Assembly (NCBI GenBank): GCA_024655965.1
Contig: JANLFL010000006.1
Span: forward strand, 879 to 64,878
Length of the DNA: 64,000 bases
Direction of reading: 5' to 3'
Origin: Caldisericota bacterium
Lineage (GTDB): Bacteria; Caldisericota; JANLFM01
In this document: piece by piece, positions 1,068 to 50,155 of the stretch
Position numbering within the stretch: position 1 is the first letter of the stretch
How the letters are laid out: the number at the start of each line of letters is the position of its first letter
Position numbers and translations under genes: made by a program
Notes under the pieces: model-generated
Databases searched by the model: none
What the model was told of the DNA's origin: nothing
What the model saw: the letters and a program-made list of their open reading frames with translations, nothing else

Positions 1068-1076
1068 GAGTAACAG

Positions 1077-1904: not shown

Positions 1905-1906
1905 TT

Positions 1907-2191: not shown

Positions 2192-2199
2192 GGTCTGAA

Positions 2200-2538: not shown

Positions 2539-2540
2539 AA

Positions 2541-3218: not shown

Positions 3219-3233
3219 AAGGAGAAATTTGCC

Positions 3234-5458: not shown

Positions 5459-5470
5459 TGGAGGTTTAAA

Positions 5471-5656: not shown

Positions 5657-5666
5657 GAGAGAAGAA

Positions 5667-6065: not shown

Positions 6066-6075
6066 GGAGTAAAAA

Positions 6076-6624: not shown

Positions 6625-6632
6625 GTGAAAAA

Positions 6633-31839: not shown

Positions 31840-32889
31840 ATGTATAAATTAGCTCTTGTCGGTTTCGGGGTTGTTGGTCAAGGTTTTTGCGAACTTCTCT
31901 CTTCGAAAAAGAATTTTCTAAAAAAGAATTTCAATCTGGATTACAGGGTTGTAGCCATTTCAGACTCTCAGAAGGGTTCGGTTTTTTCCCGGGAAGGTAT
32001 CGATCTCTCAAAAGCTCTGGAATGGGTCAAAGGCGGAAGGAGTTTGGACGAATTTCCCGGGGATGAAAACGGCTGGGACGCCTTGACAACCATCGAAAGA
32101 TCCGGGGCGGATATCCTTTTTGAGGCCACCTGGACGGACATCCGCACGGGAGAACCAGGATTGAGCCATATCAGGAAGGCTCTGGAGAAGGGGATGCACG
32201 TAGTGACCACTAACAAGGGCCCGATCGCCCTTTTCGGAAATCAGTTGCAAAGGGATGCAGAGGAAAAGGGCCTGTTTTTGCGCTTCGAAGGTACGGTTAT
32301 GAGCGGCACTCCCCTTTTGAACCTCATCCGGGAGTGCCTGGCAGGTTGCCAGATCCAGGAAATAAGGGGGATCGTGAATGGGACGACCAACTTCATCCTC
32401 ACCCAGATGTTCGAGGGAAAATCATACGCCGAGGCATTGAAAACTGCTCAGGAACTCGGTTACGCGGAAGCAGTTCCCGATGCGGACGTTTTAGGATGGG
32501 ACGCACTGGCGAAGGCCTGCATTTTAGCCAATACTGTTTTTGGGGCTCAAATCAAACCTGACCCGGATAAACTTCCCTGCCAAGGCATCGACAAGGTTTC
32601 ATTAAAGGATATCGAACAAGCCAAAAGCGAGGGAATGGTGATCAAGTTGATTGCCCGGGTTTTTATAGAAAACGGTGAGGTCCGAGTAAAGGTCTCACCG
32701 GAGAGGATCCCCCTTAGCGATCCCCTTTCAGGTATAAAGGGAGCGAAAAACGCCCTGACCATCAAAACCGATGCTCTCGATGAGATTACGATTACCGGGT
32801 ACGGTGCGGGAAAAACTCCCACCGGGTTTGCCATGCTGGTGGATTTCCTGGATATTCATAAAAAACTTTCAAGGAGAGGAAATGAATAG
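31840..32889 (+). CDS. hom: Homoserine dehydrogenase-like NAD(P)-binding dehydrogenase, without an ACT domain
   Basis: Rossmann motif LVGFGVVGQG, then VNGTTNFILTQM and AQELGYAEAVPDADVLGWDALAKACILA, which resemble Hom catalytic-domain motifs. Confidence 0.7.
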   Translation: MYKLALVGFGVVGQGFCELLSSKKNFLKKNFNLDYRVVAISDSQKGSVFSREGIDLSKALEWVKGGRSLDEFPGDENGWDALTTIERSGADILFEATWTDIRTGEPGLSHIRKALEKGMHVVTTNKGPIALFGNQLQRDAEEKGLFLRFEGTVMSGTPLLNLIRECLAGCQIQEIRGIVNGTTNFILTQMFEGKSYAEALKTAQELGYAEAVPDADVLGWDALAKACILANTVFGAQIKPDPDKLPCQGIDKVSLKDIEQAKSEGMVIKLIARVFIENGEVRVKVSPERIPLSDPLSGIKGAKNALTIKTDALDEITITGYGAGKTPTGFAMLVDFLDIHKKLSRRGNE

Positions 32890-34660
32890 CCCATTATTTG
32901 ACCGTTACCTTCGGGTGGACCTTAATAAAAGGTCTTTTTCCGCAGAAAAGATTGATCGGGATACCCTGAGGAAGTATGTGGGTGGGAAAGGGGTGGGGCT
33001 CTCCCTCCTTTATCAACTTGACAAGTCCGACGATCCTTTTGATCCCTCGAACCCTTTGATTCTCACAACCGGTCCCCTCACCGGTTCAATCATCCAGACC
33101 TCTGCCCGCTCGGTGATCGTCACCCGTTCTCCGCTTACGGGAAATTTCCTCGACTCCGGGGCCGGGGGCCATTTCGGTCCAGCATTAAGGAGGGCTGGCT
33201 GGGACTATGTCTCAATCACCGGTGCTTCCCCTGAACCCCTGTATTTGCTCATCAAGCCATCAGGGGTGGAGTTCAAGGATGCCTCTGACCTCTGGGGAAA
33301 AGATATCTTCGAAACCGAGAGGATCCTCAAGGAAAGGCATCCTGGGAGCAGGGTGGCCTCAATTGGTCCAGGGGGAGAAAATCTGGTCCGGTTTGCCTGC
33401 ATCGGGACTGAACTATATCGGCAATTCGGAAGGGGTGGAGCTGGAGCGGTGATGGGGTCAAAAAAATTGAAAGCGGTAGTTGTACAGGGGAACGAGAGGA
33501 TCGAATACGCCGACGAAAAGCGATTCCAGGAGCTGGCCAGGGAAATCGTGGAAGAATTGAAGGTCCACCCCAATGCCAAAAGAAGGTATGACCTGGGGAC
33601 GATGATGTGGGTAAGAATGGGGCAGGAGATCGGACATTTCCTCCCCACTCGGAATTTTCAAAGAAGCGAATTCCCCGAATACGAAGGGATTACCGCGGAG
33701 ACCATGAAAAGAGAGCTGGAATGGAAATCCGTTGGCTGCTTCGGGTGTGCCATCATCCGTTGCGCCAAATTCGCCAAGTGGAATGGCTTCGAGCTTGAAG
33801 GGCCTGAATATGAGACTACCGCTTTCCTTGGTTCCAATTGCTGCCTGAAAAATGCAAAGGATGTTGCTTATGCCAACTGGCTCTGCGATCGGTACGGACT
33901 GGATACTATTTCCACCGGGGTGACTATCTCCTTTGCCATGGAATGCGCGGAAAGGGGACTCCTGGAAAAGCAGGATAACCAAAGGATTCACTTCGGTTCA
34001 GCCCCCGCGGTTCATTCCCTGATCGAAGAGATCGCTTTCCGGAGGGGAATCGGGGAAATCCTCGCCGAGGGTACGCGAAGGGCATCGAGGATTATCGGCA
34101 AAGGCAGCGAGTACTTCGCCATCAACATTTCCGGGATGGAGATTTCCGGGGTGAACATTTTGGGTTGCTATTCCATGGGTTTGAACCTGGCCACGGCGGA
34201 TTTTGGCAGCCACACCCGTTTCTGGAGCGCCACCGACGAGATGAACAATGCGCTCAGCCTGGAAGGGTTACCCGCCTACATAAAAAAGGGACAGGATGAG
34301 ATAAATGTTCGAAATAGCATGGTAATCTGCGATTTCTTCCCCTTCGGTTTGGACCGACTTGCTCCCTTCATGGAAGCGGCAACGGGCTTCGACTACACAG
34401 CCCAGGAATTGCTTGAGGTTGGGGAGCGGATCCATTCGCTCTCCCGGCTTTACAATCTCAAAACCGGAAGGACCCATGCCGACGATACCCTTCCCCCCCG
34501 CTTTTTCGAGGAGGAAAGTACTGCTGGCCTGATGAAAGGTAGAAAAATCCCTCGAGAGTTTTTTGAAAAACAGGTTCAGGAGATCTTTTCACTCAGAGGA
34601 TGGGACCAGGAAGGGCGGCCCAGGCCTGAAACACTGAAAAAGCTGAAGATCGAATTTTAA
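32882..34660 (+). CDS. aor: Aldehyde:ferredoxin oxidoreductase (tungstopterin AOR family)
   Basis: The N-terminus LRVDLNKRSFSAEKIDRDTLRKYVGGKGVGLSLLY is AOR-like, and the protein is 592 aa. The ATG at 32882 overlaps the hom 3' end by 8 nt. The ORF-track start at 32771 lies inside hom. Confidence 0.85.
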   Translation: MNSPLFDRYLRVDLNKRSFSAEKIDRDTLRKYVGGKGVGLSLLYQLDKSDDPFDPSNPLILTTGPLTGSIIQTSARSVIVTRSPLTGNFLDSGAGGHFGPALRRAGWDYVSITGASPEPLYLLIKPSGVEFKDASDLWGKDIFETERILKERHPGSRVASIGPGGENLVRFACIGTELYRQFGRGGAGAVMGSKKLKAVVVQGNERIEYADEKRFQELAREIVEELKVHPNAKRRYDLGTMMWVRMGQEIGHFLPTRNFQRSEFPEYEGITAETMKRELEWKSVGCFGCAIIRCAKFAKWNGFELEGPEYETTAFLGSNCCLKNAKDVAYANWLCDRYGLDTISTGVTISFAMECAERGLLEKQDNQRIHFGSAPAVHSLIEEIAFRRGIGEILAEGTRRASRIIGKGSEYFAINISGMEISGVNILGCYSMGLNLATADFGSHTRFWSATDEMNNALSLEGLPAYIKKGQDEINVRNSMVICDFFPFGLDRLAPFMEAATGFDYTAQELLEVGERIHSLSRLYNLKTGRTHADDTLPPRFFEEESTAGLMKGRKIPREFFEKQVQEIFSLRGWDQEGRPRPETLKKLKIEF

Positions 34661-35733: not shown

Positions 35734-37083
35734 ATGGTGAAACTCGTTTTTTACGGCGGCGTTGGGGAAATCGGAGGAAATAAAGTCCTCCTCCAGGATG
35801 GTGATACCAGGATCTTCCTCGATTTTGGGAAAAGCTTCTCCAGGAGAGCTTACTACTTCGATGACCCCTTTCTTGTCCCCAGGGAAATTGAGGACTTCCT
35901 TGAGCTTGAGCTGATCGAACCCATTCAGGGGGTTTACAAGATCCCCAATGCTTCTGAAACCCAGAAATTGGTGGACGCAATTTTTATTTCCCATGTCCAC
36001 GCGGATCATGTTGACCACGCCTCCTTGAGCCATCCTATGATCCCAATTTACGTAGGGGAAACGGGGAGGCTGATACTGAACAGCCTTGGGGTAACCAGGT
36101 TTCGTCAGATCGACAACGACCTCTCGGAGCTCCAGTTTCGAACCTTCAGAACTGGTAGCACTTTGAAAGTGGGAAGGATGGAGATCGAGCCCATCCACGT
36201 TGACCATTCGATCCCCGGATCTTACGGTTTCATTGTCCATACCTCCCAAGGACCGATGGTATACACGGGGGATTTCAGACTTCACGGCCCTAACTCCCAC
36301 CTTTCCTGGGACTTCCTGAATCGAGCCAAAGAGGTGCAGCCCGTGGCATTGATTTCCGAGGGGACAAATGCTTTCGCCACCACCTTCTTGAAGGAGAAGG
36401 AAATCGAGGAGAAAATGGAGGTCCTGATCAGATCCTCAAAGGGCCTGGTGGCTGTTTCTTTTCTCTTTAAGGACGTTGACCGATACCGGTCCATTTATCG
36501 GGCATGCAAAAACGCGGGGAGGAAGCTGGTTCTTTCCTTAAAGCATGCCCATCTTCTCCGCTCCTTGAGAAACGATTCCAAACTGACCACTTCCATCCCC
36601 TTGCCCGGCGAGGAAGAGGTCTATTTCCTCGTAAGGAGAAGGGGTTGCACCTACGAATGGGAGATGGAGCTTAGTTCTCAGCTCGAAAAAATGGGAAGGT
36701 TGGTGACCTCGGAGCTCATCAGAGAGAACCAGAAGGAGTTCGTGGTCAACTTGAACCTTTTCGACCTTCCCGAGCTGGTAAAGATAAAACCATTGCCCGG
36801 GAGCATCTTCATCCTTTCATTGACCGAGCCTTTCAACGAGGAGATGGAACTTGATTACGAAAGGCTCACCCATTGGTTGGAGCACTTCGGAATGCCTCTT
36901 TATTCACTTCATTCCTCAGGCCATGTGCTTCCCCATGACTTAAAAGGAGCGGTGGAATATTTGAATCCCGAGAAGGTCTTTTTGATCCATTCGGAGGAAC
37001 CCCTCCTCCTTTCAAAGTATCTTTCCGATTCAGCCAGCGAGGTCGTTATTCCCGAAAAGGGCAAGGAATATCTTTTTGGTTGA
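35734..37083 (+). CDS. MBL-fold metallo-hydrolase, RNase J/beta-CASP-like
   Basis: MVKLVFYGGVGEIGGNKVLLQDGDTRIFLDFG is an RNase J-like N-terminus. HVHADH matches HxHxDH, and the C-terminal HSSGH is typical of beta-CASP. Confidence 0.7.
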   Translation: MVKLVFYGGVGEIGGNKVLLQDGDTRIFLDFGKSFSRRAYYFDDPFLVPREIEDFLELELIEPIQGVYKIPNASETQKLVDAIFISHVHADHVDHASLSHPMIPIYVGETGRLILNSLGVTRFRQIDNDLSELQFRTFRTGSTLKVGRMEIEPIHVDHSIPGSYGFIVHTSQGPMVYTGDFRLHGPNSHLSWDFLNRAKEVQPVALISEGTNAFATTFLKEKEIEEKMEVLIRSSKGLVAVSFLFKDVDRYRSIYRACKNAGRKLVLSLKHAHLLRSLRNDSKLTTSIPLPGEEEVYFLVRRRGCTYEWEMELSSQLEKMGRLVTSELIRENQKEFVVNLNLFDLPELVKIKPLPGSIFILSLTEPFNEEMELDYERLTHWLEHFGMPLYSLHSSGHVLPHDLKGAVEYLNPEKVFLIHSEEPLLLSKYLSDSASEVVIPEKGKEYLFG

Positions 37084-37151
37084 CGCTGTCAGACAAAGCC
37101 GTTTATTATTTCTTAAAGGAAGGCTTTTAACGAGAAAGAGGTGCGCCCGAA

Positions 37152-37613
37152 TTGAAGGTCGACATCACCTTGAAGGTCAATGGCAAGCTTTTTCAGCTCT
37201 CCCTTCCTCCCTCAACCACCCTTCTTGAGGCTCTTAGGGATCATCTTGGTTTCACTGGGGTAAAGGAGGGCTGCGGAAAAGGGGAATGCGGAGCATGCAC
37301 TGTCCTAATTGACGGAAAACCCATCAACTCTTGTTTGATGCTTGCCCCGCAGGCTGAAGGAAAAGAAGTAATTACAATCGAAGGCCTGAGCGAAAATGGC
37401 CCAACCCCTCTCCAGAAAGCATTCGTAGAGGAGGGAGCGGTCCAGTGTGGATACTGTACCCCGGGAATGATTCTTTCTTTAACTGCTCTTTTGAATCAAA
37501 ACCCATCCCCTTCTGAGGAGGAGATAAAGGAAGCCATCTCCGGGAATCTCTGTCGTTGCACAGGCTACTTAAAAATTATCCAAGCGGTAAAGAGGACAAC
37601 CTCGGGGCAATGA
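37152..37613 (+). CDS. Xanthine-dehydrogenase-family [2Fe-2S] small subunit (CoxS/XdhC-type), copy 1
   Basis: Two 2Fe-2S motifs, GCGKGECGACTV...NSC and QCGYCTPGM...CRCTGY. TTG start after GAGGTG. Confidence 0.88.
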   Translation: MKVDITLKVNGKLFQLSLPPSTTLLEALRDHLGFTGVKEGCGKGECGACTVLIDGKPINSCLMLAPQAEGKEVITIEGLSENGPTPLQKAFVEEGAVQCGYCTPGMILSLTALLNQNPSPSEEEIKEAISGNLCRCTGYLKIIQAVKRTTSGQ

Positions 37614-38215
37614 TTTTCTCTGGCCTAGTCTTGGCAGCGGGAGAGTCGGAAAGAATGGGGACTCCCAAGATGCTTCTCCCATGGAAAGGGAGGACTGTCC
37701 TCGAACAGGTCATCCAGGGCGCATTTGATGGCGGGGTGCAGGAAATTGTAGTTGTCCTGGGGGGCGATAAGGAAAAAATTCAAGAGAAGCTTCAAAAAAA
37801 TACCTGGCCAAAACCATTGAGGATGGTCTTCAATCCGGATTTCAAGAAGGGGATGCTTTCCTCCATCCAAGCAGGTATGAAGGAAATCGACCAAAAATCT
37901 GAGGCGGTCCTTCTCGCTTTGGGGGATCAACCAGCCATTCCCTCACGGATTTACCGGGAACTTCTGGATTTTTTCCCTTCCTGCGGAAAGGGGATCTTGG
38001 TCCCCAGGTATAAGGGAAAAGGAGGTCACCCCATGGTGATATCCAGGAAATATTTTGATTTCATTTTCAGCCTTGATCCCCAAAAGGATAGCCTTCATTC
38101 TCTAACCAAATCCTTTTTTTTCGATATTTTCCACTTAGAGGTCTCCGCGCCGGAGATCCTTCAGGACATAGACAGGCCTGAGGATTTTGAGGCTTTGTCA
38201 AAAAGGGGGGAATAG
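37610..38215 (+). CDS. mocA: Molybdenum cofactor cytidylyltransferase (MobA-like NTP transferase)
   Basis: MIFSGLVLAAGESERMGTPKMLLPW matches the LAAGxSxRMG motif. ATGA overlap with the upstream gene. Confidence 0.8.
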   Translation: MIFSGLVLAAGESERMGTPKMLLPWKGRTVLEQVIQGAFDGGVQEIVVVLGGDKEKIQEKLQKNTWPKPLRMVFNPDFKKGMLSSIQAGMKEIDQKSEAVLLALGDQPAIPSRIYRELLDFFPSCGKGILVPRYKGKGGHPMVISRKYFDFIFSLDPQKDSLHSLTKSFFFDIFHLEVSAPEILQDIDRPEDFEALSKRGE

Positions 38216-38219
38216 TCAA

Positions 38220-39083
38220 GTGAGGGATTTTAAATATTTCCGACCCAAGACCCTTAAGGAGGCATTAAAAATTCTCCGGAATGAAAGAGGAAAGGTTCTG
38301 GCCGGGGGTACGGACCTACTTGTAAAAATGAAGGACGGCTTGATTTACCCTGAAAGCGTAATCGATATCACCTTGCTCGAGGAGCTGAGGAATATTCGCC
38401 AGAGGGATGGAAGGGTAGAGATCGGAGCGCTGGCCACCCTGTCCATGGTCGCTTCTTCCCAGATCATTCAGTTAAGAGCCCCTCACCTTGCTGAATCAGC
38501 CCGGTTGATTGGTTCCCCTCAGATAAGGAATATGGCAACCATCGGGGGGAACATCGTCAACGCCTCTCCCGCGGGAGACTCCATCCCTCCCCTTTATACC
38601 TTAAATTCCGAACTGATCCTGGAATCAGAAAATGAGAAGAGGGTGGTAAAAATTGAGGATTTTTTTTCGGGCCCCGGCGTTTCTTCCATCCGCCCCCATG
38701 AGCTTTTAACCGCCATCACTTTCCCCTTCCCCGAAGAACCCTTCTTCTCTTTCTTCAAAAAGGTGGGACAGAGGAAAGCCCTGGCGATCTCCAAAATTAG
38801 CCTGGCTTTCTTGGGGGTTATTGAGGAACAAGGAAGGAGTTTTCGTGATGTGAGGATCTCCCTTGGGGCCGTAGCACCCACTGTTATTCGGGCAAGAAGG
38901 ACCGAGGACTTCCTCAAGGGTAAAATCATCGACCAAAAGGTCCTGGAAGAAGTTTCGGGCCTTTGCGCTGAGGAGACCAAGCCTATTTCCGATATCCGAT
39001 CCACCTCAGTTTACAGAAGGAAGGTTTCCGGGGAGTTGTTAAAAAAAGGTTTAGTCGAATTTACGGAAGGGGTGATTTCGTGA
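38220..39083 (+). CDS. Xanthine-dehydrogenase-family FAD-binding medium subunit (CoxM/XdhB/YgfM-type), copy 1
   Basis: FKYFRPKTLKEALKIL...VLAGGTDLLVKMK...ATIGGNIVNASPAGDSIP. GTG at 38220 follows AGGGGGG. Confidence 0.85.
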   Translation: MRDFKYFRPKTLKEALKILRNERGKVLAGGTDLLVKMKDGLIYPESVIDITLLEELRNIRQRDGRVEIGALATLSMVASSQIIQLRAPHLAESARLIGSPQIRNMATIGGNIVNASPAGDSIPPLYTLNSELILESENEKRVVKIEDFFSGPGVSSIRPHELLTAITFPFPEEPFFSFFKKVGQRKALAISKISLAFLGVIEEQGRSFRDVRISLGAVAPTVIRARRTEDFLKGKIIDQKVLEEVSGLCAEETKPISDIRSTSVYRRKVSGELLKKGLVEFTEGVIS

Positions 39084-40417
39084 GGGTTGAACGGATTGTT
39101 CCCAAATCCATTCCCCCAGGGGAAAGAAAGGATTTCTCGGAAGTTTATTCAAGTTTTGCTTTTCAAGAAGCCCTTTTTGAAGCCAGAAGATGCCTTTACT
39201 GTTATGATGCTCCCTGCGTGAAGGGGTGTCCTACGGGGGTGAACATCCCCGAGTTCATCTCAAGGATAAAATCCGGGAACCTCATTGGGGCTGCGAGGTT
39301 AATCTATTCTGCAAACCCTTTGGGTTCGGTCTGCGGAAGGGTATGTCCAACAGAGGTTTTATGCGAGAGGTCCTGTACAAGCAAACTTTTGAATATTCCC
39401 ATCGCCATCGGTCATCTCCAGCGTTATGTCTGTGACTTCGCCCTGGAAAATGAAAGGGTCTCCTTCCCTTACCCCCAACCCCAGAAAGGCCCCATCGCTG
39501 TAGTTGGTGGTGGCCCTGCCGGCCTTTCCTGCATTCATTTTCTCAAGCTTCTCGGTTATCGGGTTACCCTTTTTGAAAGGGAGGAAGAACCGGGTGGGCT
39601 CCTACTCAATGGGATTCCTCCCTACAGGCTTCCTGAAAAGACTGCCAGGAAGGAGATTTCCTTAATCCTCCAGGGGGTGGAAATCGGAAAAGGGATTGAG
39701 ACGAAAGAGGATGCTTTAAGGGTTATTAAGGAATTCAAAGCCATTTTCCTTTCCCCTGGGGCGAATAAACCAGTGAGCCTGGGGGTGCCCGGAGAGGACC
39801 AAGAGGGTGTAATTTCTGCCGGGGACTTTTTGAAAGAGGTTTCTAAGGAAAAAGGACAATTTGATTTCTCGGGGAAGGTGGTTGCCATACTGGGAGGAGG
39901 GGCTTCAGCCATGGACGCTTCCAGGGTGGCGCTCCGCTTGAACGCCTCCCGGGTTATTGTCCTTTATCGCAGGACAAGGGAGGAAATGCCGGCCTTTCCC
40001 TCGGAATTCCAGGAAGCTCTTGAAGAAGGCGTGGAGTTTCTCTGGCTGGTTCAGCCAGTGGAAATCAAAAAGCGAGATGGGAGGCTTTTTCTTACCCTTG
40101 AAAGGATGACCTTGAAAGAGCCGGATGAAAGTGGAAGACGGGCTCCAAAAGGAACCGGTGAGACTTTTGAGATGGCCTGCGATATCCTAATCAAGGCGAT
40201 TGCAGCTTTTCCCGATCCCCGCTTTCTTGAGATCTGGCCGGGTTTGAAATTGGACCCCCGAGGTTATCCCCTTGAGAATAACCGCCAGAGCACCAATCCC
40301 AAAATTTTCCTGGGAGGGGATCTTATAAAAGGAGGCACGGTTGTCCAGGCTGTTGCTGATGGAAAAGAGGGCGCAAGAAGGATTGACGAATGGTTGAAAG
40401 GAGGAGGTGCCCAATGA
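39080..40417 (+). CDS. preT: NAD-dependent dihydropyrimidine dehydrogenase subunit PreT-like (glutamate-synthase small-chain family)
   Basis: The N-terminal 4Fe-4S region reads EARRCLYCYDAPC...CPTGVNIP...CGRVCP. Dinucleotide folds VVGGGPAGLSC and ILGGGASAMD are present. Confidence 0.8.
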   Translation: MRVERIVPKSIPPGERKDFSEVYSSFAFQEALFEARRCLYCYDAPCVKGCPTGVNIPEFISRIKSGNLIGAARLIYSANPLGSVCGRVCPTEVLCERSCTSKLLNIPIAIGHLQRYVCDFALENERVSFPYPQPQKGPIAVVGGGPAGLSCIHFLKLLGYRVTLFEREEEPGGLLLNGIPPYRLPEKTARKEISLILQGVEIGKGIETKEDALRVIKEFKAIFLSPGANKPVSLGVPGEDQEGVISAGDFLKEVSKEKGQFDFSGKVVAILGGGASAMDASRVALRLNASRVIVLYRRTREEMPAFPSEFQEALEEGVEFLWLVQPVEIKKRDGRLFLTLERMTLKEPDESGRRAPKGTGETFEMACDILIKAIAAFPDPRFLEIWPGLKLDPRGYPLENNRQSTNPKIFLGGDLIKGGTVVQAVADGKEGARRIDEWLKGGGAQ

Positions 40418-41610
40418 CCCCCGATCTTTCAGTAAATTTCTGCGGGATAAAATTTCCCAACCCCTTCATCCTGGCAGCAGCCCCAACCACGGATGACGGG
40501 GAGGTGGTTGCCCGGGCTTTTGAAGCTGGCTGGGCTGGGGCTGTCTTGAAGACAACTTCCGTGGAGAAGGAACCTGTTGAGCTCGTCTATCCACAGATGG
40601 GGGCGATCGAGGTCAACGGCCAGAAGTTGATTGGCATGGTCAACATTGACTTGATTTCCAAAAGGCACATTGATCAGGTTGAGAAAGATGTCCGCAATTT
40701 GAAAAAGGCCTTCCCAGACAAGGTCGTGATGGCTTCGATCATGGGTTCGAGGAAAGAGGACTGGCAGGAACTCGTTTTCCGTTTGGAGGAAGCGGGAGTT
40801 GATATGATTGAATGCTCTTTCTCCTGTCCACATGGAATGCCGGAGAGAGGGATGGGCTCGACCATTGGCCAGAATCCGGAGTTGACTGAGCGCACTGCCA
40901 GGTGGGTTAAGGAGGCGGCAAAAAGGGTCCCAGTGATGATTAAACTAACGCCCAACGTCACGGATATCGTCCCCATTGCTCGAGCAGTTAAGAATTCTGG
41001 TGCCGATGCCGTCTGTGCGATCAATACCGTTCTGGGGTTAATCGGAATAGACCTAGATACCTTTTCCCCTCTCCCAAGCGTGGATGGAATGGGGATCTAC
41101 GGAGGAGTTTCTGGGCCGGCGATCAAGCCCATTGCCCTTCATTTCGTCTCCAAAATTGCCCGAAACGTGGATATCCCAATTTCGGGGGTGGGAGGAATTA
41201 GCACCTGGAAGGATGCAGTGGAATTCTTGCTTGTAGGAGCAAGGACCGTCCAGCTCTGTACTGCCCCCATGCACTACGGTTTCCGGATAATAGATGACCT
41301 AATTGATGGGCTTTCCGCTTACCTTGAGGAGAAAGGGTTCAAGGGCGTAGAGGAGATCATCGGTCTTTCCCTTCCCAGGTTAACCTCTTATGAGCACCTC
41401 TCCAGGACCCACAAAGTGAGATCTCAAATCGACCTCGATTCCTGCATCAAGTGCGGATTGTGTTATGTTTCCTGCAGGGACGGGGGGCATCAGGCGATTC
41501 TCCTTAGGGAGGACCGAACCCCGGTGGTCGATGAGGAGAAATGCGTGGGGTGCGCTTTGTGCCCTCAGGTATGCCCCGTGGGGGCTATCTCTTTAAAGAG
41601 AATCCAATAA
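40414..41610 (+). CDS. preA: Dihydropyrimidine dehydrogenase subunit PreA-like (DHOD-type TIM barrel with a C-terminal 2x[4Fe-4S] domain)
   Basis: CGIKFPNPFILAAAP...ECSFSCPHG...KLTPNVTD. The C-terminus reads CIKCGLCYVSC...CVGCALCPQVCP. ATGA overlap with preT. Confidence 0.82.
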   Translation: MTPDLSVNFCGIKFPNPFILAAAPTTDDGEVVARAFEAGWAGAVLKTTSVEKEPVELVYPQMGAIEVNGQKLIGMVNIDLISKRHIDQVEKDVRNLKKAFPDKVVMASIMGSRKEDWQELVFRLEEAGVDMIECSFSCPHGMPERGMGSTIGQNPELTERTARWVKEAAKRVPVMIKLTPNVTDIVPIARAVKNSGADAVCAINTVLGLIGIDLDTFSPLPSVDGMGIYGGVSGPAIKPIALHFVSKIARNVDIPISGVGGISTWKDAVEFLLVGARTVQLCTAPMHYGFRIIDDLIDGLSAYLEEKGFKGVEEIIGLSLPRLTSYEHLSRTHKVRSQIDLDSCIKCGLCYVSCRDGGHQAILLREDRTPVVDEEKCVGCALCPQVCPVGAISLKRIQ

Positions 41611-41832
41611 TTGAGGATAAGGGTTCAGGCCTTAGGAGGGCTAACGAAGGAAGATCTGGTCTGCGAGATGGACGTTCGGGAGGGGACCACGGTGGATGAT
41701 GTGGCAAAAAGCCTCCCTCTCAAGGAGACCCCATTTTTGATTTTTCTGGCCAACGGGTCAAGGGTTTCTGGAAATTACCCTCTGCAAGAGGGCGATTCCT
41801 TGATTATTTTCCCACCTGTCTTGGGAGGTTAA
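41611..41832 (+). CDS. MoaD/ThiS-family ubiquitin-like protein with a C-terminal Gly-Gly
   Basis: 73 aa ending in IIFPPVLGG. TTG start immediately after the preA stop, and 2 nt before the next gene. Confidence 0.65.
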   Translation: MRIRVQALGGLTKEDLVCEMDVREGTTVDDVAKSLPLKETPFLIFLANGSRVSGNYPLQEGDSLIIFPPVLGG

Positions 41833-41834
41833 AC

Positions 41835-42704
41835 TTGATTCCCCCTTTAAACTACCTCCGCCCAAATAACCTTGAAATTGCCTTATCCTTCCTTTCTGAT
41901 GAAAAGCTAAAACCCCGTTTCATATTAGCGGGAGGGACTGACCTGATTGTGGAATTGAGAAAAGGAAATATCCCACCGGATTCCTTTGTTGTGGACATTT
42001 CCTTCCTCCCGGAACTACGGAAGCTCCATTTGAACAACGGAGAGCTCCAAATCGGTCCCCTAATTACTCACAGGGAGATTTCGGATTCCAGCCTGGTGAG
42101 GACCTTTTCCCCTCTTCTTTCCCGGGCATGCGGAGAGGTGGGAACCCCCCAGGTTAGAGCTCGGGGTACTATTGGGGGAAACATCGCCCACGCTTCTCCC
42201 GCAGCTGACTCCATCCCCCCTCTTCTCCTTCACGATGCGGTTGTACACTTGCGTTCCCTGGATTCAACGCGGTCAGTTCCCCTTTCATCCTTTTTGAAAG
42301 GCCCCTATTCCACGGATTTGGAGGAAGGAGAACTGATTGAAAGGATAACCCTTTCTCCCCTTAAGGGTTTTAATTTCGGGTTCGAGCGGTTGATTCCCAG
42401 GCAGAGGGTGGGGATCCCCAGGCTGATCATCTGCGTGGCCCTTAAGGTTGGCCAGGTAATCGAGGAGGCTCGGATTTCCATTGGGGCAGCCACTCCCGTG
42501 GCCTTCAGGGCCAAAGATGCTGAGGATTTCTTAAAAGGCAAATTTTTTTCCGATGAAATTTTCCATGAGGCCTCCCGACTTGCCAGCCAGGAAATGCTGG
42601 AGATCTCCGGAATGAGGTGGTCCACCCCATATAAAAAACCAGTTCTCGAAGCACTTTTGAGGAGAGCCTTAAAGGTTGCTTCCGGATCGACCCCCGATGA
42701 ATAA
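41835..42704 (+). CDS. Xanthine-dehydrogenase-family FAD-binding medium subunit, copy 2
   Basis: YLRPNNLEIALSFL...ILAGGTDLIVELR...GTIGGNIAHASPAADSIP. TTG start. Confidence 0.85.
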   Translation: MIPPLNYLRPNNLEIALSFLSDEKLKPRFILAGGTDLIVELRKGNIPPDSFVVDISFLPELRKLHLNNGELQIGPLITHREISDSSLVRTFSPLLSRACGEVGTPQVRARGTIGGNIAHASPAADSIPPLLLHDAVVHLRSLDSTRSVPLSSFLKGPYSTDLEEGELIERITLSPLKGFNFGFERLIPRQRVGIPRLIICVALKVGQVIEEARISIGAATPVAFRAKDAEDFLKGKFFSDEIFHEASRLASQEMLEISGMRWSTPYKKPVLEALLRRALKVASGSTPDE

Positions 42705-43173
42705 AGTTAGAATCAGGCTAAAAGTAAATGGTGGGGACTATGTCCTGGAGGTCTTTCCAAATAAGCGGCTCCTTGACATCCTGCGCGATGACCTTGGCTT
42801 AACCGGTACGAAGGAAGGCTGTGGCATTGGTGAATGCGGGGCTTGCACAGTCCTGTTGGATGGAGAAGCGGTGAACTCCTGTCTGGTTCTCGCCCCCCAG
42901 GCTGACGGGAAAGAAGTCCTTACCGTCGAAGGGCTGGGGGATGGAAAAAACCTTCACCCCCTTCAGAAGGCCTTCATCGAACATTTTGCCTTTCAATGCG
43001 GCTTCTGTACTCCGGGGATGCTGATGGCCGCCCTTTCGTTAATTTCCAAAAACCCCCAACCCACGGAAGAAGAAATCAGAAAGGGGTTATCGGGTGTTCT
43101 TTGCAGGTGCACGGGGTATCTCCCCATTATTGAAGCCGTAAAAAAAGCAGCGGAGGAGATGAAAAAATGTTGA
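42697..43173 (+). CDS. Xanthine-dehydrogenase-family [2Fe-2S] small subunit, copy 2
   Basis: GCGIGECGACTV...NSC and QCGFCTPGM...CRCTGY. The ATG at 42697 overlaps the 3' end of the FAD-subunit gene. Confidence 0.88.
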   Translation: MNKVRIRLKVNGGDYVLEVFPNKRLLDILRDDLGLTGTKEGCGIGECGACTVLLDGEAVNSCLVLAPQADGKEVLTVEGLGDGKNLHPLQKAFIEHFAFQCGFCTPGMLMAALSLISKNPQPTEEEIRKGLSGVLCRCTGYLPIIEAVKKAAEEMKKC

Positions 43174-44492
43174 TTGGAGGAGGTCCGCTTTTCACCTTCG
43201 GCAAGGAGGATATTTTTTTGGAAAATGGAGGAGTTCGGGTGGAAGGAGGTTTAGTGAAGGAGGTCGATTCCTGGACTTCCCTCCGGAAGAAATTTCCTCA
43301 AGAGGAATTTTTCGATACCCAGGGAGGGGTAATCATCCCCGGCATGACCTGTGCTCACCACCATTTTTATTCCTCCTTCGCCCGAGGGATGAGTTTGAAG
43401 GGGAAAAGCCCCCGAAATTTCGGGGAGATATTACAGGATCTCTGGTGGAGTCTGGACAAGAAATTGACCCCGGAGGATATCTATTTTTCCGCCCTTGTAG
43501 CCCTGATCGATGCTATCAAATGCGGGACGACCTCCATCCTTGATCATCATGCCAGCCCTAAATCTATAAAAGGAAGCCTCAGGATGATCGCCCAGGCAGT
43601 TAAGAAAGCAGGTGTCAGGGCATGCCTCTGCTACGAGGTGTCAGATCGGGATGGCCCCCAGGCGGCCAAGGAAGGCCTTGAGGAAAACGCCGATTTTCTT
43701 CGGGAAACGAAAATTGAAGATTCCGATTTCCTGAAGGCTACCTTCGGGCTCCACGCCTCTTTTACTTTATCCCAGGAAACTCTTATTTCCGCTCGGGATA
43801 TGGCTTCCGCGCTTGGTGCTGGTTTTCACATCCACGTTGCCGAGGGGGAAGAGGACCAGGAGGATAGCCTCCGATCCTACGGGAAAAGGGTAATCGAGAG
43901 GCTTCGAGATTCCGGCATTTTGGGGGAAAAGACCCTGGCGATCCACTGCATCCACGTTGACCAGAGAGAAATCGGGATTTTGAAGGATACTAAAACCATG
44001 GTTGTCCACAATCCCTCCTCCAACATGAATAACGCTGTCGGGTATGCCCCGGTAGAGGAAATGATCTCCCGGGGAATAACCTGCGGATTGGGAACCGATG
44101 GTATGAGCTCGGACATGTTCCAGGAATTGAAGACCGCTTTCTTTCTTTTGAAGCACCAATCCCGCGACCCAAGGAAGGGCTGGGAAGAGATCCAGAAAAT
44201 TTATTTCCAAAATAACCCCAAGATTTTTGCCAAATTCTTCCCCCATCCTTTGGGAAGCCTATCGCCCGGCTCTTATGCCGATATGGTGGTTCTCGATTAC
44301 GATCCCCCCACCCCCTTAAATAGGGAAAACTTCCTGGGTCACCTTCTTTTTGCAATTCAATCCCGGAATGTTAGGGATGTGATCGTGGGGGGTAATTTCC
44401 TCATGAGGGATAGACAGATCCTGACCCTCGATGAGGGGGAAGTTTTAAAAGAGTCCCGGAAATTGGCTTTAAAACTCTGGGAAAGGTTTTGA
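43167..44492 (+). CDS. ssnA: Amidohydrolase-superfamily aminohydrolase, SsnA/chlorohydrolase-like
   Basis: PGMTCAHHHFYSSFARGM carries the HxH metal motif in an SsnA-like context. HIHVAEG and HCIH are also present. 441 aa. Confidence 0.7.
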   Translation: MLIGGGPLFTFGKEDIFLENGGVRVEGGLVKEVDSWTSLRKKFPQEEFFDTQGGVIIPGMTCAHHHFYSSFARGMSLKGKSPRNFGEILQDLWWSLDKKLTPEDIYFSALVALIDAIKCGTTSILDHHASPKSIKGSLRMIAQAVKKAGVRACLCYEVSDRDGPQAAKEGLEENADFLRETKIEDSDFLKATFGLHASFTLSQETLISARDMASALGAGFHIHVAEGEEDQEDSLRSYGKRVIERLRDSGILGEKTLAIHCIHVDQREIGILKDTKTMVVHNPSSNMNNAVGYAPVEEMISRGITCGLGTDGMSSDMFQELKTAFFLLKHQSRDPRKGWEEIQKIYFQNNPKIFAKFFPHPLGSLSPGSYADMVVLDYDPPTPLNRENFLGHLLFAIQSRNVRDVIVGGNFLMRDRQILTLDEGEVLKESRKLALKLWERF

Positions 44493-44495
44493 TTT

Positions 44496-46286
44496 ATGCA
44501 GTTTTGTAGGGAAAAGCTGGGAAGCGTTTCCCGAACCCTTGCCCGGACTGCAATGGGGGAGGAAAAAGCCGACCTCGTTCTAATTGGGGGAAAGCTGATT
44601 AATGTCTGTTCGGGGGAAATTCTGGAGAGGATGGACGTCTCCATAAAGGGTTCGAGAATCGCTTACGTCGGGCCGGATGCCTCTTTTTCGGTCGGAGAGG
44701 GAACGGAGGTTCTGGATGTCAAGGGAATGTACCTTTCCCCGGGGTTCCTGGATGGCCATGTTCACGTTGAATCCTCAATGCTTACCATTAGGCAATTTGC
44801 TTCCGCTGTTCTCCCTCACGGCACCACCGGTATTTTTTGGGATCCTCACGAAATCGCCAACGTTTTCGGTTTAAAAGGTGTAAAGCTGATGCTCGAAGAT
44901 TCACGCGGACTCCCCCTTCAAGTGTTTATGGAGATCCCCTCCTGCGTCCCTTCCTGTCCTGGGTTTGAAACCTCCGGGGCCCAGGTATCCCTTGAAGATA
45001 TTTCGGAAGCACTTTCCTGGGAGGGAGTCATCGGTCTTGGAGAAGTAATGAACTTCCCTGGGGTCATTTCCGGGGATCCCTTTCTTCACGAAGCAATCGC
45101 CAGGACCCTGGAAGCCGGGAAGGTGGTTACCGGGCATTATTCCTCTCGGGACCTGGGAAGGGCTTTCCAGGCTTATGCCGCCTCGGGAATCGGGGACTGC
45201 CACGAGGGTGTTTCCTTAGACGATGCCAGATCGAGGATCAGGGCAGGGATGTATGCCTTGATCCGCTTCGGCTCTGCCTGGCATGACATCAAGGAAAACA
45301 TCAAAGCCGTCACTGAAGCCCGCCTCGATTCCAGATTCATTTGCCTGGTTTCTGACGATCGCCATCCCGAGACCCTCCTGAGCCGCGGTCACATGGACGA
45401 TGTTTTAAGGGAGGCGATTGGAAACGGCGTGCCCCCAATTATGGCCATTCAGATGGCTACCCTTAACACCGCAAGTAATTTTGGCATCTCGCGGGACTTC
45501 GGGTCGGTAAGCCCCTCCCGCTTTGCGGACATCGTTGTTTTGGAGGATTTAAAAGAGGTAAAAATAAATTCGGTAATCGCCTGTGGAAGGGTGGTCTATC
45601 GGGAAGGGCAACTCCTCACCCAGTTTGAGCCCTTTCCTTACCCCGAGGAAATCAAAAACTCCGTCAAGTTGAGAGATCTTCCCCGGGAAGAGGATTTCAG
45701 GATCCCCGTCCAAAGTCTTGGCCATGCAAGGGTAAGGATAATTGAGGTGATTGAGAATCAAGTGTTAACCAGGCACAGGGTTTTTGACCTTCCCGTTTTA
45801 AATGGGTTTTTGTCTCCTTCCCCGGAACTTGACGTGGCAAAAATCGCAGTGCTTGAAAGGCACCATAAATCGGGAAACATCGGGCTGGGGTTCGTAAAGG
45901 GTTTGAGGATTAGGAGGGGGGCAATTGCTTCCACGGTCTCCCACGATTGCCACAACCTCCTTGTCTGCGGAATGAGTGATCGGGAAATGGCCAGGGCCTG
46001 CGCAGAAGTTGTCCGGATGGGGGGCGGCATGGCCGTCATTTTGGGGGACCAGGTCCTGGCAAGGGTGGAACTCCCCATCGGTGGATTGATGTCCGATGAA
46101 CCAGTGGAGGTTGTTTCAGCTAAGGTGAGGAAGCTGGGGGAGGGTTTAAAGGAAATTGGCTGCGATTTGAATTCCGCGATGATGACCTTTTCCCTGCTCG
46201 CCCTTCCGGTGATTCCCGAGCTCAGGCTCACTGATCGGGGCCTCTTTGACAGCGTTACTTTTCAACCAGTCCCTATTCTGGTTTAA
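44496..46286 (+). CDS. ade: Adenine deaminase
   Basis: ADLVLIGGKLINV...PGFLDGHVHVESSML. The 596-aa two-domain layout is typical of Ade/AdeC. Confidence 0.85.
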   Translation: MQFCREKLGSVSRTLARTAMGEEKADLVLIGGKLINVCSGEILERMDVSIKGSRIAYVGPDASFSVGEGTEVLDVKGMYLSPGFLDGHVHVESSMLTIRQFASAVLPHGTTGIFWDPHEIANVFGLKGVKLMLEDSRGLPLQVFMEIPSCVPSCPGFETSGAQVSLEDISEALSWEGVIGLGEVMNFPGVISGDPFLHEAIARTLEAGKVVTGHYSSRDLGRAFQAYAASGIGDCHEGVSLDDARSRIRAGMYALIRFGSAWHDIKENIKAVTEARLDSRFICLVSDDRHPETLLSRGHMDDVLREAIGNGVPPIMAIQMATLNTASNFGISRDFGSVSPSRFADIVVLEDLKEVKINSVIACGRVVYREGQLLTQFEPFPYPEEIKNSVKLRDLPREEDFRIPVQSLGHARVRIIEVIENQVLTRHRVFDLPVLNGFLSPSPELDVAKIAVLERHHKSGNIGLGFVKGLRIRRGAIASTVSHDCHNLLVCGMSDREMARACAEVVRMGGGMAVILGDQVLARVELPIGGLMSDEPVEVVSAKVRKLGEGLKEIGCDLNSAMMTFSLLALPVIPELRLTDRGLFDSVTFQPVPILV

Positions 46287-46362
46287 TTTTTTATCGGGAG
46301 ATTTCAAAAGGGGGTGAGATTTAAATTAAAGTCTTAAAAAAAATCTGGAAAGGAGAGGTTGG

Positions 46363-47511
46363 ATGGTAAGAAAAAAAGGAATTCTGGTTTTTTTGGCTCT
46401 TTTCGTGCTTTTAGCCTTCACCGCAACTTCCTGCGCTACATCGACGCCTACACCGACTCCCACTACCCCCACCCAGACTGCAACCCCCACTCCTTCGGAG
46501 AAGAAACTGAAAGTCGCCTTCATTTACGTGGGGCCAATTGGAGATGGTGGATGGACCTATGAGCACGATCAGGGAAGGAAGATGCTTGAGCAGGAAGTCC
46601 CCGGGGTTGAGACCACATATGTGGAATCCGTCCCCGAGGGAGCTGATGCCACAAAGGTAATCCGGGATTTTGCCCAGAAGGGTTACGATGTGATCATCAC
46701 CACTTCCTTCGGGTACATGGACCCCACAATTGAGGTGGCAAAGGATTTCCCCAACATCGTTTTCCTTCATTGTTCGGGATACAAGACCGCTCCAAACGTC
46801 GGTACTTACTTCGGGAAAATTGAGGAACCCCGATACCTCTCGGGGTTAGTCGCCGGGAAAATGACCAAGAGCAACCTCATTGGTTACGTGGCAGCTTATC
46901 CAATCCCTGAAGTAATTCGGGGAATCAACGCTTTCACCCTGGGAGTGCGGGCGGTTAACCCGGATGCGGAGGTCAGGGTTGTCTGGACGAACACCTGGTA
47001 CGATCCTGCAAAGGAGCGCCAGGCAGCCGAGGGCCTGCTCGATGTGGGATGCGATGTGATCGCCCAACACCAGGATACCCCTGGACCCCAGCAAGCGGCA
47101 GAAGCCCGGGGTGTATATGGGGTAGGTTACGATTCCGATATGTCCAAATTCGCCCCCAAGGCCGTTTTGACCAGCCCCATCTGGAAGTGGGGAGTTTACT
47201 ATGTGGATGCCATCAAAAGGATCAAAGCGGGCACCTGGAAAACTGAACAGTATTGGGGTGGAATGAAGGATGGGATCGTTGACCTTGCTCCCCTTGCTTC
47301 CTTTGTCCCCGATGATGTGAAACAGCTGGTCGAGGCTAAGAAAAAGGAAATCATGGAAGGGAAATTCGACATCTTTAAAATTTTCTCAGGGCCTTTGAAG
47401 GACCAGAGCGGGCAAATAAGGGTTGAAGAAGGGAAATCGATGACCGGGGAAGAGATCCTGAACATGAACTGGTTCGTGGAAGGGGTCGTGGGCGAAATTC
47501 CCCAGGAGTGA
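46363..47511 (+). CDS. BMP-family (PnrA-like) nucleoside ABC transporter substrate-binding lipoprotein
   Basis: Signal peptide with a lipobox-like TATSC, then a Thr/Pro-rich linker, then KVAFIYVGPIGDGGWTYEHDQG. Confidence 0.88.
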   Translation: MVRKKGILVFLALFVLLAFTATSCATSTPTPTPTTPTQTATPTPSEKKLKVAFIYVGPIGDGGWTYEHDQGRKMLEQEVPGVETTYVESVPEGADATKVIRDFAQKGYDVIITTSFGYMDPTIEVAKDFPNIVFLHCSGYKTAPNVGTYFGKIEEPRYLSGLVAGKMTKSNLIGYVAAYPIPEVIRGINAFTLGVRAVNPDAEVRVVWTNTWYDPAKERQAAEGLLDVGCDVIAQHQDTPGPQQAAEARGVYGVGYDSDMSKFAPKAVLTSPIWKWGVYYVDAIKRIKAGTWKTEQYWGGMKDGIVDLAPLASFVPDDVKQLVEAKKKEIMEGKFDIFKIFSGPLKDQSGQIRVEEGKSMTGEEILNMNWFVEGVVGEIPQE

Positions 47512-47517
47512 GCTTTT

Positions 47518-47549
47518 GCGGGGGAGATTTGAAATCTCCCCCGCTTTTT
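47518..47549 (+). terminator. Strong intrinsic terminator or attenuator between the binding-protein gene and the ATPase gene
   Basis: GCGGGGGAGAT pairs with ATCTCCCCCGC (11-bp perfect stem, 5-nt loop), followed by TTTTT. Confidence 0.7.
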
Positions 47550-47564
47550 AAGGGGTTTCAAACC

Positions 47565-49103: not shown

Positions 49104-50155
49104 GTTTTGTCTTAGAAAAAAGGGAGAGATCCTCCCCCCTCGTTAATTTTCTGGTCCCCACCCTTTCCATTGTTCTCGCCCTCCTTCTTGGGGCTTTGAT
49201 CATTTATCTTTCCGGTTTTTCCCCCAAAGAAGCATACCTTGAAATGTTCAATGGATCTTTCGGCTCGGGTTACGCATTTTCTGAGACCATCGTCAAGGCC
49301 ATTCCTTTAATGCTTTGTGCCCTGGGGGTTGGTTTTGCTTTCCGGACAGTTCTGTGGAACATTGGCGCCGAGGGACAGCTTTATATGGGTGCCTGGGCTG
49401 CTGGCTGGATTGCTTTGAATTTTCCCCAGGGACAGTCCTGGTGGCTGATTCCCTCGATGATGGTCGCGGGTTTTCTTGCGGGAGCGTTTTGGGGGTTAAT
49501 CCCCGGAATCCTTAAAGCTTCCCTCAACGTGAATGAAATTATCACCTCCTTGCTCTTAAACTACGTTGCCATCCTCTGGGTTGATTATTTCGTCTACGGT
49601 CCCTGGAAGGACCCCAAGGGTTATGGATTCCCCTTTAGCCCCTTTTTTGGCGAAGGGGCCTGGCTCCCCACCTTTTTCGGGACCAGGATTCACCTGGGTC
49701 TTGTTTTTGCCCTCCTCGCCGCTCTTCTCATTTTCTTCCTTTTAAGGAGCACCAGGCTGGGTTTTGAAGTGAGGGTGATCGGGGAAAACCCTCAGGCTGC
49801 AAGGTATGCCGGGATGAACATCTTCCGGACGGTTATCCTGGTCTTCATGATTTCGGGTGGTTTAGCCGGTCTTGCGGGAATGGCTGAAGTTTCCGGGGTA
49901 ATCCATAGGATGCAACACGCCATTTCCCCCGGTTACGGTTATACCGCAATCATCATTGCCTGGCTTTCCCGGTTAAACCCCCTCGTTACCGTGGTCGTCT
50001 CTATCCTTTTCGGCGGTCTGCTTGTGGGAGGATTTTCCGTTCGCTCCCTGGGTTTATCCGAATCCCTGGTTTACGTAATTCAGGGGATCATCCTCTTCCT
50101 TTTGCTCGCAGGTGACATTTTGACCAGGTACCGCTTATCCTGGAGGAAAGGGTAA
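49100..50155 (+). CDS. ABC transporter permease (BMP/nucleoside system)
   Basis: 351 aa and polytopic. ATGA overlap with the ATPase gene. Confidence 0.88.
   Translation: MSFVLEKRERSSPLVNFLVPTLSIVLALLLGALIIYLSGFSPKEAYLEMFNGSFGSGYAFSETIVKAIPLMLCALGVGFAFRTVLWNIGAEGQLYMGAWAAGWIALNFPQGQSWWLIPSMMVAGFLAGAFWGLIPGILKASLNVNEIITSLLLNYVAILWVDYFVYGPWKDPKGYGFPFSPFFGEGAWLPTFFGTRIHLGLVFALLAALLIFFLLRSTRLGFEVRVIGENPQAARYAGMNIFRTVILVFMISGGLAGLAGMAEVSGVIHRMQHAISPGYGYTAIIIAWLSRLNPLVTVVVSILFGGLLVGGFSVRSLGLSESLVYVIQGIILFLLLAGDILTRYRLSWRKG

Follow-up and report, generated by a model that had tools for sequence, protein, structure and literature searches.

Split-locus encoding of xanthine dehydrogenase-type subunits in a probable purine-catabolism operon of a Caldisericota family

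The 64,000-nucleotide stretch of DNA analysed here, the window, corresponds to bases 879-64878 of a 65,344-bp contig (JANLFL010000006.1, named C44) in the assembly GCA_024655965.1 of a Caldisericota bacterium; at positions 37152-43173 it carries two gene pairs for the 2Fe-2S small subunit (S) and the FAD medium subunit (M) of the xanthine dehydrogenase (XDH) family, which are placed in mirror order around a PreT-PreA reductase and have no molybdopterin subunit (L) beside them. This region represents a purine-degradation system characterised only recently, rearranged in this lineage so that its genes are split between loci, and not a new kind of enzyme complex. In particular, two L genes devoid of S and M partners, La and Lb, are located on another contig of the same genome, and the subunit counts, the gene profile of one relative and the synteny observed in other phyla make it likely that two enzymes are formed across the two loci, Lb+S1+M1 and La+M2+S2. 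A sequence-only reading of the window had described the S/M pairs as orphans, a term that the partnerless L genes make inappropriate, and had offered two explanations, an unusual split with the genes of the catalytic subunits at another place, or a partnership of the S/M modules with PreT/PreA; the former is strongly supported by the L tandem, the counts, the phylogenetic profile and the cross-phylum synteny, and the latter is unsupported for the reasons discussed below.

Subunit census and the distal L genes

The genome (G000; 1.73 Mb, 47 contigs, 98% complete) was searched by hidden Markov models (HMMs) and encodes six L (PF02738), six M (PF00941) and six S (PF01799) subunits. Four of the six L genes adjoin their own M and S: two are the central genes of a mirrored M-S-L-L-M-S array on contig C43 (71933-79355, locus L014), an unbroken equivalent of the gene order seen in the window, one belongs to an M-S-L set of the XdhD type on contig C33, and one is found on contig C45, where an M gene accompanies an S-L fusion. 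The last two, Lb (730 aa, C22:50971-53163) and La (775 aa, C22:48642-50969), are on the minus strand of a 436-kb contig and form a stand-alone tandem in which Lb is transcribed first and La second. No S or M gene is present near this tandem, its flanking genes are unrelated, and it lies at least about 70 kb from the window operon even if C22 and C44 abut. Since two L genes without S/M are matched by two S/M pairs without L, the numbers agree and the S/M pairs are no true orphans.

Both distal proteins have the hammerhead, MoCoBD_1 and MoCoBD_2 domains and retain the catalytic Glu equivalent to bovine E1261. The best model for each is TIGR03196 (PucD), with 580 bits for La and 575 bits for Lb against a cut-off of 784, and all the curated equivalog cut-offs are missed; judged from their sequences, La and Lb are members of uncharacterised XDH-family subfamilies.

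The sequence-only reading had also stated that no open reading frame (ORF) of the size of an L subunit exists in the 64 kb. The absence of an L subunit is correct, and the match to MoCoBD (PF02738) is missing in a profile search from the whole of contig C44, hence also beyond the window edges there; three long ORFs are nevertheless present, and they encode a TerB protein (745 aa), a DEAD helicase (730 aa) and DNA polymerase I (PolA, 908 aa) rather than a hidden L subunit. The search of the complete genome that it had proposed retrieves the two L genes of C22, besides those elsewhere in the genome, and none in the vicinity of the S/M operon. The presence of the cofactor gene mocA on a DNA without any L gene is equally confirmed and finds an explanation: MocA is the sole homologue that tblastn finds in the genome and therefore probably serves all six L subunits.

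On contig C45 the S-L fusion (927 aa) belongs to a minus-strand operon (970-6997, locus L016) together with an OTCase-like carbamoyltransferase, the FAD subunit and an amidohydrolase 28% identical to SsnA, which may be another heterocycle-degrading module.

Pairing of the subunits and origin of the split

The relatives of this bacterium in the same Caldisericota family (G001-G008) show that the S/M layout is not a chance pattern. The order AOR...MBL-S1-MocA-M1-PreT-PreA-MoaD-M2-S2-SsnA-(Ade)-Bmp, in which Ade is the adenine deaminase and Bmp the nucleoside importer, is kept in G001, G002 and G007 and also on truncated contigs of G003 and G008; it recurs in three or more genera of the family with proteins that are 35-89% identical, and an L gene is never nearby. 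The S and M genes themselves stay open frames in at least three genera at 35-78% identity. The order Lb-then-La is likewise kept in G001, G003, G005 and G006, on contigs separate from those of the S/M operon. In all members of the family the cluster is followed by the Bmp importer. The MBL-fold gene, with orthologues at loci L029, L030, L031 and L034, is the first gene of the S1 operon in each family member and is directly upstream of S1 in G001, G002, G007 and the reduced locus of G004.

The most informative relative is G004, whose genome is 98% complete and encodes a single subunit of each kind, L, M and S. Its L is the orthologue of Lb (63% identical) and is located on contig C3, and its M and S are on contig C1 in a reduced MBL-S1-MocA-M1-Bmp locus. 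As the sole L is on a contig other than that of the sole M and S, the only XDH-type enzyme of this organism must draw its subunits from both places, and Lb is thereby linked to S1/M1. La, M2, S2, PreTA (the PreT/PreA pair) and SsnA are missing together from G004, and their absence as a group ties La to M2/S2 and to the function of PreTA and SsnA.

The pairing of La with M2 and S2 is illuminated by other phyla. With an alignment of M2 orthologues as the sole query, 80 loci were obtained from a collection of species-representative genomes; 72 loci outside the family carry an M2-type gene, and in 64 of these an L gene is directly upstream of it, the S2-type gene following the M2-type gene in such L-M-S units. 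Among the six L paralogues of this genome the best match of the upstream L is in all 64 loci La, with 42-59% identity and an advantage of +150 to +360 bits. In the other eight loci the L gene is downstream (five, among them L040, in which an AOR gene comes between S and L), the locus is ended by a contig edge (two, L039 and L095) or no L is found (one, L062). The neighbourhood comparison suggested by the sequence-only reading gives a double result: within the family three genera or more preserve the order, and in other phyla M2/S2 are joined to L.

A maximum likelihood tree of 90 L proteins (IQ-TREE) places La inside a clade with a Shimodaira-Hasegawa-like approximate likelihood ratio (SH-aLRT) of 95, whose other 60 members are each immediately followed by an M gene, and groups Lb weakly (support 87) with the L of M-S-L units in clusters of Halanaerobiaceae and Bacillota; E. 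coli XdhD clusters with the L of contig C33. The active-site residues, mapped to the bovine numbering via a phmmer alignment to PDB 3sr6, follow the same division. At the positions E802/R880/F914/F1009/A1078/E1261 the La clade, which includes Bacillota, Zixibacteria, Synergistota and Atribacterota, has an invariant D/R/F-or-Y/L/V/E, and La thus possesses the equivalents of R880 and E1261 that are typical of purine-oxidising XDH; Lb has E/N/F/Y/S/E, and its Y and S are also found in the L of the M-S-L units of Halanaerobiaceae and Bacillota.

Two features of the retrieved loci deserve a separate mention. The locus without L (L062:9444-10846, in a metagenome-assembled genome (MAG) labelled uncultured delta proteobacterium, CAVXFM010000010.1) consists of an S-M pair whose flanks of 10 kb to the left and right contain neither L nor PreA nor SsnA, and may represent a second lineage with split-encoded XDH-type subunits. 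In Halanaerobiales (L043, L044, L057, L099, L101, L105 and others) the second L is divided into genes of ~400 and ~325 aa, like NdhL/NdhM of nicotinate dehydrogenase, and these clusters also have two tandem SsnA paralogues.

Contiguous versions of the whole gene set exist in other phyla. MocA-L-S-M-L-M-S-PreT-PreA-Ade-SsnA is uninterrupted in Zixibacteria and Ignavibacteria, Halanaerobium has L-M-S-SsnA-SsnA-M-S-L-PreA-Ade, several candidate phyla have L-M-S-PreT-PreA-(Ade)-SsnA and PreT-PreA-L-M-S, and one MAG shows S-M-L-L-M-S-MocA. The contiguity of the same set elsewhere indicates that this Caldisericota family moved both L genes out, and the arrays with two facing units indicate that the S-M/M-S mirror order of the window was inherited. 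The mirror order would be a relic of an S-M-L-L-M-S-type array whose Lb-La centre has moved away, with PreT-PreA-MoaD now in the middle; the C22 tandem has indeed the order that would be expected after removal of the centre from an S1-M1-Lb-La-M2-S2 array, consistent with such a relocation. The MoaD-like gene occupies the position held by La in the clusters of other phyla and keeps its C-terminal GG in six family genomes; no homologue of it was found in the other-phylum clusters, and the MBL-fold gene is absent from the retrieved clusters of other phyla as well. Both genes are family-specific additions.

The operon, its predicted pathway and alternative readings

The block from S1 to S2 is probably the core of a one-strand operon of ~15 kb (35734-51090) for anaerobic purine catabolism, headed by the MBL-fold gene. 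All genes of the block are on the plus strand, and neighbours overlap or leave gaps of 0-2 nt. The MBL-fold gene (beta-CASP/RNase J-like, 35734-37083, plus strand as all genes of the operon) matches Lactamase_B_2 in Pfam and scores 80 bits, below the cut-off, with TIGR00649. S1 (37152-37613) and S2 (42676-43173) contain Fer2 (PF00111) and Fer2_2 (PF01799), are 61% identical, and each has the 4+2+2 Cys of both 2Fe-2S sites, all eight being aligned; M1 (38187-39083) and M2 (41835-42704) contain FAD_binding_5 and CO_deh_flav_C, are 36% identical, and retain AGGTDL and TIGGN. The MocA-like molybdenum cofactor cytidylyltransferase (37556-38215) matches NTP_transf_3 (PF12804) with 116 bits, and its top-scoring model is TIGR03310 with 159 bits (cut-off 186). 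What had been read from the letters alone therefore holds on comparison with Pfam and NCBIfam models, coordinates and alignments: the co-directional and mostly overlapping order S1-mocA-M1-preT-preA-moaD-like-M2-S2, the eight Cys of both S copies, the FAD motifs of both M copies, and the impression gained by eye of a smaller divergence between the two S than between the two M copies.

PreT (39080-40417) is a PreT-like NAD(P)H/FAD/2x[4Fe-4S] subunit of the GltD family with Fer4_20 and Pyr_redox_2; it is 34% identical to E. coli PreT and reaches no NCBIfam equivalog cut-off, with its domains present. PreA (40390-41610) is an FMN/2x[4Fe-4S] reductase subunit with PF01180 (DHO_dh) and Fer4_21 that attains 540 bits with NF006183 against a cut-off of 335, and it is 44.6% identical to E. 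coli PreA. SsnA (43167-44492) is an amidohydrolase above the cut-offs of NF005540 (589 bits vs 444) and TIGR03314 (568 bits vs 455.5), and it is followed by an adenine deaminase (44496-46286; TIGR01178, 517 bits vs a cut-off of 472.5) and by a Bmp/PnrA-type nucleoside ABC importer (46363-51090) made up of a binding protein, an ATPase and two permeases (Pfam Bmp, ABC_tran and two BPD_transp_2).

The MoaD/ThiS-like protein (41611-41832; 73 aa, C-terminus PPVLGG) matches the ThiS family (PF02597) above the cut-off with 34 bits, with its GG end conserved, and falls below the cut-off of TIGR01687. Only one other ThiS/MoaD-family gene is present in the genome, beside an AOR paralogue (C22:240922-241134). 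The genome encodes nine molybdo-/tungstopterin enzymes, six of the XDH type and three of the AOR type, and has MoaA, MoaC, MoaB, MoeA, a ThiF/MoeB-like gene and a MOSC-domain gene. MoaE was found in none of the nine genomes (G000 and G001-G008), the Pfam model, a custom HMM of the MoaE of the sister family (--max, E up to 10) and tblastn with E. coli MoaE all giving no hit, and it is present in 13 of 14 genomes of the sister family. A 152-aa ORF in the molybdenum cofactor operon (C43:9079-15268, locus L123) was considered as MoaE and is the MOSC-domain protein. An ORF of 141 aa that is specific to the family is at C43:15247-15672.

Upstream of the operon there is a hom-like/AOR gene pair, whose AOR-family tungsten/molybdenum enzyme is encoded at 32771-34660, and between this pair and the operon are a NUDIX and a class II aldolase gene on the minus strand. 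No riboswitch or other RNA element was found in the window or at the C22 locus with Rfam at gathering thresholds. Farther upstream (16975-22710), three consecutive genes encode a 745-aa protein with TerB_N and TerB_C, an ATPase of the BrxC/BrxD family with 443 aa and the DEAD/DEAH helicase of 730 aa; this trio has the look of a defence system and is unrelated to the S/M operon.

In E. coli and Clostridium, an XDH homologue (XdhD-YgfM or XdhAC) dehydroxylates urate to 2,8-dioxopurine. YgfK then reduces the ring, a step for which C. difficile uses UacX, a homologue of PydA/PreA, and SsnA opens the reduced ring; the conversion of 2,8-dioxopurine to ring-opened products has been shown for SsnA combined with YgfK or with a homologue of PreA/PydA (PMC12507026; bioRxiv 10.1101/2025.04.24.650524). 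By analogy, PreTA and SsnA most likely perform ring reduction and ring opening in the 2,8-dioxopurine (reductive urate) pathway. PreTA is read as an NAD(P)H-dependent 2,8-dioxopurine reductase on account of the curated cut-offs exceeded by SsnA and PreA, the published biochemistry of YgfK and UacX, and the context in other phyla: the window PreA is 48-57% identical to the PreA that adjoins La-M2-S2 and SsnA in Zixibacteria, Ignavibacteria and Krumholzibacteria, and the adenine deaminase gene recurs in the clusters of other phyla. Three forms of the reductase exist there, namely PreT+PreA, a ~850-aa fusion, and PreA alone (~365 aa), the latter UacX-like form (~30% identical) being found in the clusters of Halanaerobium, Acetomicrobium and Atribacterota; they parallel the published alternation of YgfK and UacX.

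According to the proposed route, purine nucleosides and bases would be imported by the Bmp ABC importer and adenine deaminated to hypoxanthine by the adenine deaminase; the Mo enzymes would arrive at 2,8-dioxopurine by hydroxylation or dehydroxylation of the purine ring, possibly assisted by the XdhD-type M-S-L set of contig C33, with MocA supplying the cytosine-dinucleotide cofactor for the six L subunits. PreT/PreA, taking the place of YgfK (E. coli) or UacX (C. difficile), would then reduce 2,8-dioxopurine with NAD(P)H, and SsnA, coupled to PreTA, would hydrolytically open the reduced ring. In its full set the pathway further comprises HyuA, YgeW or UacY, YqeA, YgeY and YgeX, besides YqeB and YqeC for the Se cofactor. 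The enzymes downstream in E. coli are partly recognisable and the lower pathway may differ: in tblastn with E. coli proteins, YqeA has a 51% identical match that adjoins carbamoyltransferases on contig C11, and YqeB is matched in its N-terminal part only.

Several points weigh against two split-encoded enzymes serving this pathway. The Lb-S1-M1 pairing draws mainly on G004 and on the weak grouping in the tree (87), and no operator is shared between the upstream regions of the operon and that of Lb on C22, the only common element being a 9-mer; a TTGACA-N-TGTCAA palindrome precedes Lb and nothing like it occurs near the window operon. The XdhD-specific insertion, which carries Glu606 (PMC12507026), is present in the L of C33 and in the second L of locus L076, and neither La nor Lb has it. 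In tblastn with the E. coli proteins the genome gave no match to YgeX or YqeC, and the YgeY-like (27% identical) and HyuA-like (30-31%) matches are weak. Finally, the 44.6% identity of PreA to a subunit of the genuine E. coli dihydropyrimidine dehydrogenase makes a pyrimidine substrate possible.

This last point leads to the reading that PreTA and SsnA constitute a reductive uracil/thymine pathway whose genes only happen to lie beside those of purine-oxidising XDH enzymes. In that case PreTA would be a genuine dihydropyrimidine dehydrogenase, as suggested by the identity of PreA to its E. coli counterpart and by the equivalog score of PreA (540 vs 335 bits), and SsnA, which has been described as related to PydB (PMC12507026), would be an analogue of dihydropyrimidinase; the absence of a YgeX match is in line with it. 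This reading is unlikely, since SsnA is above the SsnA-specific equivalog cut-off, the PydA homologue UacX and SsnA convert 2,8-dioxopurine (PMC12507026), PreA or PreTA is found with SsnA, adenine deaminase and La-M2-S2 in many phyla, and La, M2, S2, PreTA and SsnA were lost together in G004.

The second explanation of the sequence-only reading, in which the S/M modules would be devoted to electron transfer with PreT/PreA in a new flavo-FeS supercomplex with or without a distal L, is improbable to a greater degree. The tight packing of the genes, the S/M pairs on both sides of PreT-PreA and the preservation of this arrangement across several genera speak for it, and internal electron routing would be sensible in a conversion of hypoxanthine to a dihydro-2,8-dioxopurine that we take to be redox-neutral overall. 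Evidence against it comes from G004, which retains S1-MocA-M1 without PreTA, and from the other phyla, in which the M2/S2 orthologues belong to standard L-M-S units and PreA is upstream, downstream, fused to PreT or without PreT; moreover, PreT itself supplies an FAD/NAD(P)H entry point, and the two L genes would be left with no S or M partner. A variant with a slightly lower chance still is that the S/M modules, PreT/PreA and the distal La and Lb assemble into a single redox-neutral purine machine. Were this so, the electrons of Mo-dependent hydroxylation would pass via FAD and FeS centres to Mo-dependent dehydroxylation and to the reduction by PreA without free NAD(P)H, and the separate L genes would reflect a separate maturation route that involves the family-specific MoaD-like protein and no recognisable MoaE.

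It is very improbable that the S/M pairs work with the neighbouring AOR-family enzyme in place of an XDH-type L. The AOR gene is also upstream of the cluster in G001 and G002, AOR homologues adjoin XDH-type genes in three other phyla, and in a Halanaerobiales MAG (PUNT01000133.1, L040:4853-8676) an AOR gene lies between S and L inside a tightly coupled XDH-type M-S-AOR-L unit; against this, the NUDIX and class II aldolase genes part the AOR gene from the operon, no AOR is near S1-MocA-M1 of G004, and the L040 unit has an L gene as well. That unit had been considered as an M-S-AOR set devoid of L, and its L gene, which begins immediately behind AOR, is cut off by the contig end. In Spirochaetia and Anaerolineaceae (L052, L109), XDH/SsnA genes are also flanked by AOR homologues, with 34-36% identity to that of the window, and the association thus recurs in several phyla. 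We know of no AOR enzyme with XDH-type S/M subunits. The notion that the S/M genes are functionless remnants decaying after the loss of L, to which the lack of an adjacent L gene lends itself, can hardly be credited given the intact eight Cys and FAD motifs, the open frames kept in at least three genera and the matching intact L genes with the catalytic Glu elsewhere in the genome.

With the two-locus reading, the apparent puzzle of FeS and FAD subunits without a catalytic partner receives an ordinary explanation from several independent lines of evidence, and a whole bacterial family would stably encode two heterotrimeric molybdenum hydroxylases at split loci. A search of the literature on split-encoded XDH-family enzymes and on purine metabolism in Caldisericota found nothing relevant. 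As a consequence of such a split, annotation pipelines and neighbourhood-based predictions will mis-call "orphan" S/M and "orphan" L genes. The 2,8-dioxopurine pathway, described in 2025 in gut bacteria, would extend to environmental anaerobes among Caldisericota, Zixibacteria, Ignavibacteria, Halanaerobiales, Atribacterota and Synergistota. The La-type L-M-S clade is widespread, biochemically uncharacterised, endowed with an invariant active-site signature and linked to SsnA and PreA-type reductases, and the three reductase architectures provide concrete targets for enzyme assays.

Comparison with known systems

An operon comprising L, M and S is usual in the XDH/CoxSML family, without being strictly defining. 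E. coli xdhABC, B. subtilis pucCDE and Eubacterium barkeri ndhFSLM have the same S/M/L domain architecture as the proteins described here; these canonical three-subunit enzymes are encoded in one operon, whereas here the subunits are at two loci.

The resemblance to the E. coli ygeV-ygfT purine/urate cluster that the sequence-only reading had perceived is real, and that cluster now has a biochemical explanation (PMC12507026; bioRxiv 10.1101/2025.04.24.650524). The E. coli cluster and that of C. sporogenes share with the window SsnA, a MocA-like protein, the components of an XDH-type Mo enzyme and a YgfM-like FAD subunit; common to them and the window are also an NAD(P)H-dependent flavo-FeS ring reductase next to SsnA and a context of purine salvage and uptake. 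In contrast to E. coli, where the reductase is the 1032-aa YgfK, two subunits, PreT and PreA, are present here; there are two S/M sets with relocated L, La and Lb do not have the Glu606 insertion of XdhD, the XdhD-like L is on contig C33, and the family-specific MoaD-like and MBL-fold genes have been added. In the C. difficile variant YgfK is replaced by UacX, a PydA/PreA homologue (PF01180), and, as in the window, a PF01180 FMN reductase adjoins SsnA and XDH-family genes; UacX has no FAD/NAD(P)H partner and probably uses ferredoxin, whereas PreT is present here.

The NAD-dependent dihydropyrimidine dehydrogenase of E. coli, PreT/PreA, has the same architecture of two overlapping genes and the same domain set. 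However, the two PreT proteins are only 34% identical, and the context of the window genes, with SsnA, Mo-hydroxylase subunits and adenine deaminase, is not that of pyrimidine metabolism, so that the substrate is likely to differ from that of the E. coli enzyme.

The closest counterparts are the contiguous clusters of environmental MAGs of Zixibacteria, Ignavibacteria and Eiseniibacteriota (L091, L111, L050, L047), which share the gene set of the window, with an orthologous second L-M-S unit (La 51-53% and M2 40-44% identical), a PreA of 50-51.5% identity and identical S-M and M-S orders. In these clusters both L genes are in place, whereas the Caldisericota family has them, apparently after excision, in a distal tandem, and the MoaD-like gene stands at the position of La.

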